This document shows positions 6,565 through 35,845 of a stretch of 64,000 nt of DNA, piece after piece. Position 1 is the stretch's first letter; the number at the start of each line of letters is the position of its first letter. Position numbers and translations under genes: made by a program. The notes below the pieces were generated by a model that made no database searches, was not told the DNA's origin, and was given only the letters and a program-made list of their open reading frames with translations. The DNA is taken from positions 2,976,001 through 3,040,000 of the forward strand of contig OZ231126.1 in the NCBI GenBank assembly GCA_965153355.1, given 5' to 3'. This stretch comes from Flaccisagitta enflata (Eukaryota).

Positions 6565-7230
6565 GATGTAAGCGTGTTTAGAGGCTCAGTGCACTCCAAA
6601 AGCCTCTTGTATTTACCTGACAACGCTCACATCATTAGCTTAAGATGTGAGCATGCTGAGAGGCAAAGTGCACTTAAAAAGCTATTTTTCACCTGACAAT
6701 GCACACCATGTTGGCTTGAGATGTGAGCATGTTGAGAGGCAAAGAGCGAACAAAAAACATTTTGCATTTACCTTACAACACACTCAACGTCAGCCTGAGT
6801 TGTGAGCATGTTGAGAGGCAAAGTGCACTCAAAAAATCTTCTTGCAAAAACTTACCTGACAACACACGCGACATTGGCCTGAGATGTGAGCATGTTGAGA
6901 GGCAAAGTGCACTCAAAAAAGCATCTTGTATTTACCTGACAATGCACGCGACATTGGCCTGAGATGTCAGCATGTTGAGGGGCAAAGTGCACTCAAAAAA
7001 GCATCTTGTATTTACCTGACAACACATGCGACATTGGCCTGAGATGTGAGCATGTTGAGTGGCAAAGTGCACTCAAAAAAGCATCTTGTATTTACCTGAC
7101 AATGCACGCGACATTGGCCTGAGATGTGAGCATGTTGAGGGGCAAAGTGCACTCAAAAAAGCATCTTGTATTTACCTGACAACACATGCGACATTGGCCT
7201 GAGATGTGAGCATGTTGAGAGGCAAAGTGC
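6565..7230 (-). repeat. 80-bp minisatellite (about 8 copies) derived from an ARHGEF10 exon 3' end and splice donor
   Basis: acattggcct recurs at 6871, 6951, 7031, 7111 and 7191; the reverse complement encodes [17 protein letters not shown] then AG|GTAAAT. Confidence 0.9.
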
Positions 7231-10200
7231 GAACAAAGAGCGGCATGTTTGACAGAGTCAGTTTATCGTTTTCCGACTTGGACCAACACGGATTATTGGC
7301 CGGTGACATGCCCAATTTTGCCATCTGCATCTGCACGATCCACTCCTGTTTAGTGTGAACAATGATAATATATTTTATGAAGAAGAATATACGTGGATAG
7401 AAGTTCTTCTATGTTTTTGCAAGCAATCATTTTTTTAGGTGCGACAAAGCTGTGGCTGTGGCTGTGGCTGTGGCTGTTGGTTGGTCGGTTGGTCGGTAAG
7501 GTATTCGTACGACGATCCACACGTCGCACCTTATTGGCCTACTTGGCCTTGTTTCTTTCATTCCTTTCTTCCATTTTTTTCTTTCGTTTTTCTTTACTTG
7601 TTTCCTTCTTTCCTTCTTTCGTCCTTTCCTTCTTTCTTTTTTCTTTCTTGCTTTCCTTCTTTTCTTCCTTTCCATTCATTCCCTCTCTCTTCCTTTCCAT
7701 TCTTTCCTTCTTTCTCCCTATCCATTCTTTCTTCCTTTCCTTCTTTCCTAATTGCTTATTTCATTCTTTTCTTTTTTTTTTCTTTTCTTATTTCTCTTTT
7801 CCTATTTTTTTTTCTTTCCTTGTTTCTTTTTTCTTTCCTTGTTTCTTTTTTCTTTCCTTTTTTCTTTTTTCTTTCCTTGTTTCTTTTTTCTTTCCTTGTT
7901 TCTTTTTTCTTTCCTTGTTTCTTTTTTCTTTCCTTGTTTCTTTTTTCTTTCCTTGTTTCTTTTTTCTTTCCTTGTTTCTTTTTTCTTTCCTTGTTTCTTT
8001 TTTCTTTCCTTGTTTCTTTTTTCTTTCCTTGTTTCTTTTTTCTTTCCTTGTTTCTTTTTTCTTTCCTTGTTTCTTTTTTCTTTCCTTGTTTCTTTTTTCT
8101 TTCCTTGTTTCTTTTTTCTTTCCTTGTTTCTTTTTTCTTTCCTTGTTTCTTTTTTCTTTCCTTGTTTCTTTTTTCGTTTCTTTTTTCTTTCCTCGTTTCT
8201 TTTTTCTTTCCTCGTTTCTTTTTTCTTTCCTCGTTTCTTTTTTCTTTCCTCGTTTCTTTTTTCTTTCCTCGTTTCTTTTTTCTTTCCTCGTTTCTTTTTT
8301 CTTTCCTCGTTTCTTTTTTCTTTCCTCGTTTCTTTTTTCGTTCCTTGTTTCTTTTTTCTTTGTCTCTTTTTTCTTTCCTTGTTTCTTTTTTCTTTCCTTG
8401 TTTCTTTTTTCTTTTCTTTTTTCTTTTTTCTTTTTTCTTTCCTAGTTTCTTTTCTTGTTTCTTTTTTCTTTCCTCATTTCTTTTTTCTTTCCTTGTTTCT
8501 TATTTCTTTCTTTCCTTTTTTCTTTCTTTCGTGCCTTCTTTTTTCTTTCTTTCCTTCTTTTTTTCTTTCTTTCCTTCTTTTCTTCTTTTTTTTCTTTCTT
8601 TCCTTCTTTTCTCTTTCTTTCCTACTTTCCCTCTCTCCTTCTTTCCTTCTTTCTTTCTCTGTTGTTCCTTCTTTCTTTCTCTGTTGTTCCTTCTTTCTTT
8701 CTCTGTCGCTCCTTCTTACTTTCTTTCTTCCCTTCTTTCTTTCTTCCCTTCTTTCTTTCTTGCTTTCTTTCTTTCCTTCGGTTCTTAATGAATCGGCTAA
8801 TCAAACACCACTGTCAGTGTTCAGTGGCATCTATGTTAAGTGGCACTGAACATAGATTTGCAGAGATCAAATGTCATTGGAAATTAGGCAGATTCAGATT
8901 CTTTCCTCCTTTCTTCCTTTCCTTCTTCCCTCCTTTCTTTCCCTCCTTCGGATCATAATAACTCGGCTAATCAAACACCACTATAAATACTTATGCAGAT
9001 ATCAAATGCAATTGGAAACGAGACCGATTCAGTGACGCAGCAGACAGCTAAGTCAGGCCAGACTTACTTCTTTGGTTTCAGCCGATTCCATTTGGAAGAT
9101 GTATTGAATTGGTTTCGCGTTGGCGTTTGATTTGGCGCTCGAGGCCGGCACGGAGATTTGAATCGTGTTGCTGCCGACGATCTTCAATTCTTCGTTCTTG
9201 GCCGCGATCGACCGACGGAGGTCGTCGGACAGACGCTGGATCACGCTGTTGTGTTGGGGAAAGAGAGGGACGGGGTGATGAAGCGGTAATCATAGATTGG
9301 TGGAGGTCATCGGACAGACGCTGGATCACGCTGTTGGGTTGGGGAAAGAGAGGGACGGGGTGATGAAGCGGTAATCATAGATTGGTGGAGGTCATCGGAC
9401 AGACGCTGGATCACGCTGTTGGGTTGGGGAAAGAGAGGGACGGGGTGATGAAGACGAATCGAGTCATGTCACCAGCAAGCATTTTAGTACATATACTTAT
9501 ACGAGTCGATACTAGCCGTTACAAAACACATACAAATATCAAACAGTTGAAAAGCCGACTCAAATTCATCTTTTTCAACTATGTATTCTCAGTTTCTTAG
9601 TTTATCCATGTTTTCCCCTCGAAATAGCATAGATCTATCCACACCAGTAAAGACAACTAAAATCAAAATGAATCAGAGCTTAATACTAGGTTGAATACCA
9701 ATTCGAATAGATTATTCAATACAGTCTTGTCCTTAGCAACAGCTAGGACATTCAATAAGCGTGGAAGATTGCTATTAACTCTTCTTTAGAGCCTTAAAAA
9801 AGCCAATACAAGTCTTTTATAGGCAATTTTGTTCTCCCGTAACGACGCATGCTATTTTTTTTTCAATTGTCAAATAACGTAGTTGATTCCAGAAAGCAGT
9901 TAGTATTGGATCTGCCATTTAAAAAGCACCGTAGATAACCGCTCGTAAATTATCGTAAATTCCCGCTCAATTCCGGATATAAAGCACTGAAAGATGTCGG
10001 ATCGCGAACGGGAAACTCTCACGTTCAACGCGTGGAAGATCAATGACATGACGCATAAGACCGTCATCCAACACCAAGTACCGCCAAGATTGTACCAGGT
10101 ATGCCGTGGTTAGTCTATTAAGCGACGAAAGAGAGAGAGAGAGAGAGAGAGAGAGAGAGAGAGAGAGAGAGAGAGAGAGAGAGAGAGAGAGAGAGAGAGA

Positions 10201-35654: not shown

Positions 35655-35845
35655 CTAGAAAAGAGAAAGATCACAGATTTGAGAATACAACGGCGTCTTC
35701 ACTTAAATCTAGTCAAGAGAAAGATCACAGATTTAAGAATACAATGGCGTATGCGAGCGTCTTCACTTAAATCTAGACAAGAGGAAGGTCATAGGTTGGA
35801 GAATATAACGGCGTACACAAGCGTCTTCACTTAAATTTAGACAAT
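35602..35845 (-). repeat. ~64-bp tandem copies of the ARHGEF10 first DH-exon acceptor (4 copies, plus 2 more at 37165-37285)
   Basis: gatcacagatttgagaat.caacggcgtacacgagcgtcttcacttaaatctag is repeated. Confidence 0.88.

Follow-up and report, generated by a model that had tools for sequence, protein, structure and literature searches.

Minisatellites whose repeat unit spans an exon-intron boundary are known in amphioxus as mirages, and troponin C is among the genes for which one has been reported. Another, in amphioxus Adh3, is attributed by later papers to Canestro et al. 2002 (NAR). Mirages have also been described in the amphioxus globin genes BflGb6 and BflGb9 (PMC3087553) and in PGBD5, where the structures were confirmed by re-sequencing (PMC3902484). 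In these reports, RT-PCR and haplotype comparison demonstrated that splicing is correct and that length is unstable, and mirages were put forward as a way in which new intron positions arise (PMC3087553, PMC3902484). A comparable structure lies in intron 7 of human F7, where the first unit of a 37-bp VNTR spans the exon 7-intron 7 boundary; the authentic 5′ splice site, which lies furthest upstream, is chosen over the identical pseudo-sites behind it, and these remain silent (PMC1557585). The Rogers model attributes intron gain to tandem duplication of an AGGT-containing segment, as in the case of a potato RdRp gene (PMC4974935). Our full-text literature searches returned only the amphioxus papers on the globins and PGBD5 and the report on human F7. 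The mirage literature searched covers few amphioxus genes and offers neither a mechanism nor a genome-wide tally.

Here we analyse seven arrays of this kind in one ARHGEF10-like gene. A preliminary description had presented the phenomenon as new, but it has already been named in amphioxus (PMC3087553, PMC3902484) and published for human F7 (PMC1557585); what is new is the host and the density of arrays in one gene. As described for the amphioxus genes, units cross from exon into intron and usually include the AG or GT, 5′ as well as 3′ boundaries are affected, arrays have their authentic copy at the edge, and divergence is higher among edge copies; low copy numbers (2-6 in the globins) and units of tens to about 160 nt are further likenesses. 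The present host, judged by protein matches, is not Branchiostoma, and a single gene carries seven arrays, one of them with 50 copies. Human F7 resembles our donor arrays in that an authentic 5′ site is followed by repeated pseudo-sites, but it is a vertebrate gene with one array, whereas donor and acceptor arrays occur together here. Splicing was established by experiment in both systems, and instability in amphioxus, whereas the present arrays are described from sequence. With the Rogers model the locus shares a short tandem duplication that provides extra splice signals; in that model the duplicated segment is internal to an exon and yields a new intron, whereas here it crosses an existing junction and lengthens the intron.

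Results

An ARHGEF10-like gene with nine identified exons

The gene lies on the minus strand of the window, by which we mean the whole stretch of 64,000 nucleotides of Flaccisagitta enflata that was analysed. Nine exons were identified by homology and frame (Table 1), and the profile search, splice-site reading and reading frame agree with the preliminary description on this number. Joined at their exon-nearest splice sites, the nine exons give 503 codons in one open frame with no stop, and the other two frames of the joined sequence contain 22 and 19 stops. Eight exons match a 45-homolog ARHGEF10 profile in colinear order (profile positions 254-729, E 1.5e-44 to 0.0016), and the ninth (Ef) was placed by phase, AG/GT and open frame. 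A search with exon Ec matched 220 proteins, and all of the 120 listed contain PF00621 (DH, RhoGEF), most of them together with PF19056/PF19057. The DH domain followed by the family C-terminal region, colinear with homologs, assigns the gene to the ARHGEF10 / ARHGEF10L family; the protein Atlas label for its product is “RhoGEF” only. Among the 120 matches listed of the 220, the best was to a barnacle (67%), and cephalochordate proteins were absent. The profile search did not find the N-terminal and far C-terminal parts of the gene within the window, and none of 59 minus-strand ORFs at 35.9-56.6 kb, considered as upstream exons, had a Pfam match.

Table 1. Exons of the ARHGEF10-like gene and tandem arrays in the window
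Feature	Positions	Strand	Description
Exon Ea	35506..35654	-	149 nt; start of DH domain; profile E 2.7e-10; AG and GT read; in 503-codon frame
Exon Eb	31903..32038	-	136 nt; profile E 3.1e-21; in 503-codon frame
Exon Ec	31107..31344	-	238 nt; profile E 1.5e-44; no array at either edge; junction test z 3.4, 2.8
Exon Ed	29980..30194	-	215 nt; profile E 4.8e-18; in 503-codon frame
Exon Ee	29415..29524	-	110 nt; profile E 3.1e-07; in 503-codon frame
Exon Ef	25946..26117	-	172 nt; no array; least certain exon, weak profile match E 6.9; closes frame
Exon Eg	25057..25201	-	145 nt; profile E 0.0016; in 503-codon frame
Exon Eh	9068..9245	-	178 nt; profile E 0.00012; in 503-codon frame
Exon Ei	7176..7345	-	170 nt; profile E 7.6e-14; in 503-codon frame
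A1, donor array of Ei	6556..7230	-	TRF 80 nt x 8.5, 84% matches; 8 copies of 55 nt exon + GTAAAT + ~19 nt intron
A2, acceptor array of Eh	9217..9453	-	TRF 85 nt x 2.8, 98%; unit of 56 nt intron + AG + 29 nt exon
A3, acceptor array of Eg	25137..25392	-	TRF 88 nt x 2.9, 96%; 3 copies of 23 nt intron + AG + 65 nt exon
A4, donor array of Ee	27166..29427	-	TRF 91-nt double unit x 24.8, i.e. 50 units of 45-46 nt
A5, donor duplication of Ed	29910..30022	-	2 copies, offset 64 nt; self-blastn 29910-30026, 87% over 53 nt
A6, acceptor duplication of Eb	31964..32180	-	2 copies, offset 112 nt; 70-75 nt exon + AG + polypyrimidine stretch
A7, acceptor array of Ea	35605..35844	-	4 copies of ~64 nt (one 54 nt); ~14 nt intron + AG + 50 nt exon
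Two extra copies of A7 unit	37167..37290	-	~1.3 kb upstream of A7; one aligned 93.8%, with AG
ENaC/ASC array	1012..1356	+	105 nt x 3.3; N-terminal coding piece + GT donor repeated
ENaC/ASC array	6055..6342	+	88 nt x 3.2; last 26 codons + stop + 13 nt beyond
Array inside PAF-AH gene	12535..12890	+	21 nt x 17; each unit with CAG/GT

Anatomy of the seven junction arrays

Seven of the nine exons have one edge in a tandem array that runs into the intron. All seven arrays named in the preliminary description are present, at coordinates that TRF and self-blastn reproduced exactly or within a few bases, and so are the two additional copies of the A7 unit. TRF detects five of them (A1, A2, A3, A4 and A7, the last as 35639-35844 with periods of 54/64 nt). 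The two-copy arrays A5 and A6 escape it by falling below 1.9 copies, but self-blastn recovers both, A6 as a match at 31972-32153 with 98.6% identity over 70 nt. Separately, tblastn and the profile search both match the decoy exon copy of A6.

In every array, the unit comprises part of the exon, the splice dinucleotide and part of the intron. The exon part measures 55 (A1), 13 (A4) and 43 nt (A5) in the donor arrays and 29 (A2), 65 (A3), 75 (A6) and 50 nt (A7) in the acceptor arrays. In A4 it is followed by GTCTGT and about 32 nt of AT-rich intron, with the 91-nt double unit in the far part of the array, and in A5 by GTGAGT and about 15-21 nt of intron. GT is kept in all copies of the donor arrays (8/8 in A1, 50/50 in A4, 2/2 in A5), and AG in all copies of A2 (3/3), A3 (3/3) and A6 (2/2) and in 3/4 copies of A7. 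The authentic donor at A4 reads CAG/GT, and its decoys mostly read CGG/GT, CAG/GT or TGG/GT. None of the main periods (80, 91, 64, 85, 88, 112 and 64 nt) is a multiple of 3, but the 45- and 54-nt sub-units are divisible by 3.

The copies lie head-to-tail, abutting with gaps of 0-8 nt, and each junction array terminates within the exon, at a distance from its edge smaller than one unit. In all seven, the authentic copy is the one at the array edge that continues into the exon, and the remaining copies are intronic. Identity to the authentic copy is 97.6 and 97.0% in A2, 95.5 and 91.6% in A3 and 94, 89 and 86% in A7; in A6, the two copies match at 69/75 positions of the exon part and 26/37 of the intron part. 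Unit copies are local, each confined to its own array except for the A7 unit at the upstream site listed in Table 1. Since copies are local only, an origin of the units from dispersed repeats was ruled out.

Identity in A1 drops with distance from the authentic copy (Spearman -0.92, p 0.003). Copies 1/3 and 2/4 are 99% alike, and the far copies have fallen to 71-81%, suggesting that the most recent event duplicated two units at the exon end. Human minisatellites grow in a polar manner beside a recombination hot spot. A1 resembles them in having its newest copies at one end, the exon end; here polarity is read from the sequence and is clear in A1 only.

Decoy splice sites and reading frame

As had been proposed, each array is a series of decoy splice sites. 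None of the 64 decoy sites tested (57 donors and 7 acceptors) keeps the frame open; among the sites tested, an intact frame comes solely from the first donor or the last acceptor in an array; the second donor of A5, for example, adds 64 nt and introduces stops. Strict use of the first donor or last acceptor by the cell is a prediction from frame and homology. The proposed route to intron expansion is also borne out in that the arrays lengthen their introns, A4 alone making up about two-thirds of the intron in which it lies.

In a poly-A RNA run with the same organism label, of which about 6 in 100 was read, depth was 0 in the bins with Ea, Eb and Ec. Four runs were compared with the stretch 31070-37590, which among the arrays includes the acceptor arrays A6 and A7 only. 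The 1004 poly-A reads placed there all fell on dispersed repeats, none of them 99% alike, and metatranscriptome contigs matched pieces of intron (e.g. 32996-33409, with 1 differing letter) and no exon junction.

Enrichment at exon edges

The excess of arrays at exon edges over chance depends on the null chosen. Tandem array makes up 33% of the gene span, and a nearby copy is found at 7/18 junctions, compared with 121/400 random intronic 80-mers whose nearby copy is no worse than that of the weakest junction array (p 0.29) and 80/354 when only 80-mers outside the junction arrays are considered (p 0.09). When the 29 arrays of the gene are placed whole, 3.38 are expected on junctions against 7 seen (p 0.036), and when only their founding units are placed, 0.56 (p 1e-5). 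Among the eight arrays with a period of at least 40 nt, a split chosen after the data had been seen, seven straddle a junction; whole-array placement of this set expects 1.29 (p 1e-5) and founding-unit placement 0.36, with 0 of 100,000 shuffles reaching 7. The sole long-unit array off the junctions (26845-26953) lies within about 19 kb of non-repeat intron. Founding units are estimated to occupy 1.8% of ancestral intron sites, compared with 7/18 junctions (p 1.8e-8).

Arrays grow by adding copies and not by engulfing their neighbours; therefore, the fair null is founding-unit placement, and more arrays were born at exon edges than a uniform null of this kind predicts. The enrichment over shuffled controls expected in the preliminary description thus holds at this locus under the founding-unit null (p at most 1e-5) and fails under the coverage null (p 0.29). 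All of these figures describe one locus, in a gene chosen by a reader seeking oddities. The distribution is also uneven within the window: the cry-DASH exons are free of arrays, as had been noted, with a nearby copy at 0/18 junctions against 7/18 in the ARHGEF10-like gene (Fisher p 0.008).

Neighbouring genes

The pattern had also been extended to two neighbouring genes, with mixed results. An array with an N-terminal ASC coding piece and GT donors does occur at the site named in the ENaC gene (1011), but support comes from one homolog, whose residues 30-59 align to 1046-1135 (E 1e-5), and the exon start is unsettled. The 21-nt array named in the PAF-AH gene (12536) likewise exists, but the exon edge proposed there is without homology support: the one homolog found (253 aa) gave no alignment to the stretch before 12535. 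The cry-DASH protein had its highest identity, 66%, with Nematostella in a 23-row tree containing no starred clade, and no cephalochordate protein was among the matches listed. Rfam gave 0 matches in the window, and ARAGORN made one doubtful call, inside a repeat.

Discussion

The locus probably carries genuine minisatellites of the mirage type, in which segments across splice junctions were duplicated in tandem and amplified on the intron side, with the decoys ignored or degraded. Such arrays would have arisen when a segment of 45-112 nt across the junction was duplicated in tandem at each of seven exon edges, followed by amplification to 2-50 copies on the intron side only, with growth presumably by slippage or unequal exchange. 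The working site would be the copy that continues into the exon, i.e., the first donor or the last acceptor, and the decoys would be ignored by the spliceosome or would give early-stop transcripts that are then degraded. Exon edges may be hot spots of duplication or places where duplications are retained for longer.

Alternatively, the locus may be so saturated with repeats that a third of any points fall in arrays and exon edges are nothing special. The coverage of the gene span and the comparison with random 80-mers agree with such a chance overlap, and with the 29 arrays placed whole the excess reaches a p of only 0.036. However, arrays add units and cannot engulf a junction, and coverage overstates the chance of a birth per site; founding-unit placement expects 0.36-0.56 against the 7 seen, seven of the eight long-unit arrays are on junctions whereas the non-repeat intron holds one, and all the junction arrays end in the exon within a unit of its edge. 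We therefore regard chance overlap as improbable. Selection for the arrays appears slightly less probable still: extra U1/U2AF sites could reinforce the true site or shield long introns, or a controlled fraction of transcripts could be sent to decay through the decoys. Of the 63 decoy copies counted, 62 retain GT or AG, the donor surroundings are the least variable part across the 50 units of A4, introns are long in the affected gene and short in the cry-DASH gene, which is unaffected, and in human F7 repeat number has been linked to expression level. The kept dinucleotides nevertheless prove little because the copies are not independent, the authentic sites beside most arrays are already near consensus, and the far copies of A1 have decayed. 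Exon-derived parts of decoys are 90.5% and intron-derived parts 85.2% identical to the authentic copy, a gap no larger than expected from neutral decay of the decoy and of both intron copies, and selection on the decoy exon parts was accordingly rejected.

An assembly artefact, with haplotypes or reads stacked in tandem, is very improbable. In its favour, the short-read contigs listed from two DNA runs stop at A6 (32084, 32125) and before A7 (35465, 35434), none of them bridging, but any genuine repeat interrupts De Bruijn contigs. Divergence between copies is 1-29% and follows an order, with higher-order units; seven assembler artefacts would have no cause to fall on splice junctions; and the amphioxus equivalents withstood re-sequencing (PMC3902484). 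A search of metagenome contigs with exon Ec for alleles or relatives returned 20 loci, the best at 65% and none usable for a comparison of copy number.

Junction-derived minisatellites of the mirage type carry a practical warning for gene prediction, as a decoy exon copy was matched here by both homology searches, the profile and tblastn. The locus also lets the choice of the spliceosome among up to 50 near-identical donors be measured, and it offers a separation of junction-biased origin from mere tolerance. More tentatively, and as a possibility that we rate below even, exon edges may be hot spots for short tandem duplication, with births at the exon-nearest end coupled to splicing, transcription or exon chromatin. 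Such a process would be shared by amphioxus and a non-chordate marine animal, may be widespread, and would steadily lengthen introns and furnish material for shifted or new ones. The same anatomy, found seven times in a gene that is not from a lancelet, indicates that the underlying process is probably not lineage-specific.

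Gene content and exon model of the ARHGEF10-like gene

Exon Ec retrieved 89 full-length homologs, and an ARHGEF10 profile built on 45 of them matched eight colinear minus-strand ORF pieces (profile positions 254-729; E 1.5e-44 to 0.0016). When AG and GT were read at each edge, the phases were incompatible across 29415 to 25201, which meant that an exon had been missed there. All AG...GT segments with the correct phase and an open frame were enumerated, which pointed to Ef; the region's only weak profile match also lies there. When joined, the nine exons of the preliminary description (Ea-Ei, in transcript order) form a single open frame of 503 codons with no stop, against 22 and 19 stops in the other frames.

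A 16-kb intron of this gene contains, on the opposite strand, the nested PAF acetylhydrolase (PAF-AH) gene. In the databases PAF-AH has a single relative, 253 aa long with 67-90% per exon, whose end resembles read-through intron. A weak match to the mitochondrial EF-Ts N-terminal domain, below the Pfam cut-off, lies in the same 16-kb intron (19216-19602, plus strand; E 1.1e-4).

Exon Ec, the most conserved ARHGEF10 exon, had its best match (67%) in a barnacle, and no cephalochordate protein was found among the 120 listed of 220 matches. For the cry-DASH exons, identity to crustacean and unnamed sequences ranges over 36-98%, and a tree did not place the window. The host is a marine animal. The stretch is present in runs labelled 'organism A' and in several marine metagenomes. 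Since a Branchiostoma source would give near-identical matches, the host, judged from these comparisons, is not an annotated lancelet.

Features of the ARHGEF10-like locus and its neighbors
Feature	Coordinates	Strand	Description
ENaC/ASC channel gene	~1.0-6.1 kb	+	Pfam matches, homologs
PAF-AH gene	~10.0-14.1 kb (10006-14090)	+	Pfam matches, homologs
cry-DASH gene	57.3-62.7 kb	+	Pfam matches, homologs
ARHGEF10-like gene	7.2 kb to at least 35.7 kb	-	homologs, profile
Exon Ea	35654-35506	-	profile, AG/GT edges
Exon Eb	32038-31903	-	profile, AG/GT edges
Exon Ec	31344-31107	-	profile, AG/GT edges
Exon Ed	30194-29980	-	profile, AG/GT edges
Exon Ee	29524-29415	-	profile, AG/GT edges
Exon Ef	26117-25946	-	phase, open frame, weak profile match (E 6.9)
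Exon Eg	25201-25057	-	profile, AG/GT edges
Exon Eh	9245-9068	-	profile, AG/GT edges
Exon Ei	7345-7176	-	profile, AG/GT edges
A1, donor	7230-6556	-	8 copies x 80 nt; 55 nt exon + GTAAAT + intron
A2, acceptor	9453-9217	-	2.8 copies x 85 nt
A3, acceptor	25392-25137	-	2.9 copies x 88 nt
A4, donor	29427-27166	-	50 units x 45-46 nt; 13 nt exon + GTCTGT + AT-rich intron
A5, donor	30022-29910	-	2 copies, offset 64 nt
A6, acceptor	32180-31964	-	2 copies, offset 112 nt
A7, acceptor	35844-35605	-	4 copies x 54-64 nt; 2 further copies at 37290-37167
ENaC/ASC array	1012-1356	+	105 nt x 3.3; N-terminal ASC coding piece + GT donor
ENaC/ASC array	6055-6342	+	88 nt x 3.2; last 26 codons + stop codon + 13 nt trailer
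PAF-AH array	12535-12890	+	21-nt units; CAG|GT in every unit
30 nt x 36 array	40367-41813
Dispersed short element	12063-12344, 13189-13465, 16064-16322, 19524-19661	both
Dispersed short element	23044-23324, 32471-32788, 36385-36582, 62751-62798, others	both

Tandem arrays over exon-intron junctions

Tandem repeats are very abundant in the 64-kb window, which is eukaryotic (137 TRF rows). All seven arrays proposed earlier over junctions of the ARHGEF10-like gene (A1-A7) are present, five being recovered by TRF and the two two-copy cases, which fall below its copy threshold, by self-blastn. The splice dinucleotide is retained in 62 of the 63 decoys counted, that is, the intron-side copies of the authentic, exon-nearest site. 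Array units are absent elsewhere in the window, except for the A7 copies 1.3 kb upstream, and the arrays are therefore local; an origin from a dispersed element was rejected because copies within the window are local only. Introns are enlarged, as had been suggested: A4, whose far part is built of 91-nt double units, makes up 2.26 kb of the ~3.3-kb Ee-Ef intron. Both tblastn and the protein profile (E 4.8e-07) matched the decoy copy of Eb (32084-32150, minus strand), which a gene predictor could mistake for an exon.

Similar arrays had been claimed for the two neighboring genes. The ENaC/ASC unit at 1012-1356 includes the family's conserved His-Gly stretch, and its length of 105 nt is a multiple of 3. 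An array of coding piece and donor does exist there; the one full-length homolog could be aligned to 1046-1135 (E 1e-5), and the first partial unit may be coding as well. The array at 6055-6342 is a repeat of the coding end, not of a splice site, so the association may be with coding-exon edges and not specifically with splice sites. For PAF-AH the array was found, but no evidence of an exon end was detected at 12535-12890.

Splice-site choice

Each authentic site was replaced in turn by every motif-found decoy (57 donors and 7 acceptors; of the three A7 decoys inside the array, the pattern missed one), and none of the 64 replacements left an open frame. An intact protein is thus predicted to require the choice of the first donor and the last acceptor, in agreement with the preliminary description as far as the reading frame is concerned. 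The stretch 31070-37590, which contains Ea, Eb, Ec and the acceptor arrays A6 and A7, was compared with four runs (one of poly-A RNA under the same organism label as the window, one marine metatranscriptome and two DNA). The poly-A RNA run had a depth of 0 in the bins of the three exons; its 1004 reads placed on this stretch were all less than 99% alike and all on dispersed repeats. Contigs from the DNA runs cover 30 of 30 bins, with the listed pieces ending at A6 and short of A7.

Arrays at exon edges compared with chance

For each junction, the 1.5 kb of neighboring intron was searched for a copy of the 80-mer centered on that junction. Copies were found for 7 of 18 ARHGEF10 junctions (z ≥ 12; the other 11, z ≤ 3.4) and for 0 of 18 cry-DASH junctions (z at most 4.3), as anticipated for the latter; the effect is uneven across the window (Fisher p 0.008), with the ARHGEF10-like gene having been singled out by a reader seeking oddities. 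However, tandem arrays occupy one third of this gene's span, and random intronic 80-mers reached the weakest junction-array score in 121 of 400 cases, or in 80 of 354 outside the junction arrays, rates from which 7 of 18 junctions does not differ significantly (p 0.29 and 0.09, respectively).

Arrays add units and push their flanks apart but cannot overrun neighbors, so that an array lies across a junction only if its founding duplication straddled it. With founding units placed randomly in the gene span, 0.36 junction overlaps are expected for the 8 arrays with a period of at least 40 nt (a cut picked after data inspection), 0.54 for the 23 with a period of at least 16 nt and 0.56 for all 29, compared with 7 observed; at most 1 in 100,000 shuffles reached 7. 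A more generous null, in which whole arrays were placed, gave expectations of 1.29, 2.98 and 3.38 (p 1e-5, 0.017 and 0.036). Seven of the eight long-unit local duplications lie on junctions and one (26845-26953) is wholly intronic, yet non-repeat intron is a target more than 10 times larger. The coverage null, which starts from junctions, and the founding-unit null, which starts from arrays, give opposite answers. We take the latter as the correct one, and on that basis conclude that such arrays arise, or survive, preferentially at the exon edges of the ARHGEF10-like gene; the enrichment expected earlier thus holds against random founding units and fails against random intronic 80-mers.

Array growth and proposed explanation

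Identity to the authentic copy drops with distance in A1 (95, 99, 94, 94, 87, 90 and 85%; Spearman -0.92). Two pairs of copies (1 with 3, 2 with 4) are 99% alike, copies 1 and 2 are 95% alike, and the four far copies are just 71-81% like any other. From this pattern, the far end is old and the newest event would be a duplication of two units at the array's exon end. Within A3 and A7 identity declines likewise, the upstream A7 copy (94%) being an exception. Across arrays, decoys are 90.5% identical to the authentic copy in exon-derived and 85.2% in intron-derived parts, which is about what would be expected if constraint acted on the authentic exon part only; this comparison gave no sign of selection on decoy exon parts.

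Most likely, short tandem duplications were seeded across exon edges, expanded on the intron side through slippage or unequal exchange, and would be tolerated because they leave the correct pairing of the exon-nearest site intact. The excess at exon edges would be explained by a true mutational hot spot, or alternatively by longer survival or weak positive selection.

Other repeats in the window

Many copies are present of a short dispersed element that has a microsatellite core of the GTCG/GTCC type and draws the poly-A RNA reads. In the DNA runs, the element's bins had summed word depths in the millions where unique sequence had ~100; it resembles a SINE-like repeat of very high copy number. 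Two blocks (38839-42557 and 50668-54326) have units in common, on the same strand but differently ordered; they consist of long-unit repeats (151-164, 162 and 295 nt), (GA)n runs and arrays built from a 21-nt near-palindrome. No Pfam match was found in them on either strand, and ARAGORN's sole call (51354-51449), inside a 21-nt array, is probably false.

Relation to known mirages

Tandem repeats of exon-intron boundaries are called mirages in amphioxus, where Canestro et al. 2002 is said to be the founding paper. In the open-access papers searched, no report beyond amphioxus and human F7 and no genome-wide count was found. The amphioxus reports describe such repeats for Adh3, globins, PGBD5 and troponin C, affecting both 5′ and 3′ boundaries, with units of 10 to ~160 nt, copies that differ between haplotypes and normal splicing, and propose them as a source of new intron positions (PMC3087553, PMC3902484). 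The human F7 intron-7 VNTR is a donor array whose most upstream site is the one used, the same design as the donor arrays here (PMC1557585).

The preliminary observation of junction arrays is confirmed, with the arrays known from one assembly and one gene. Its interpretation is supported in part, as regards decoy arrays, intron growth and the frame rule for first donors and last acceptors, and opposed by the coverage null. On the basis of this one gene, mirages would extend beyond lancelets, and the locus is unusually dense for testing junction-biased duplication and splice-site choice.
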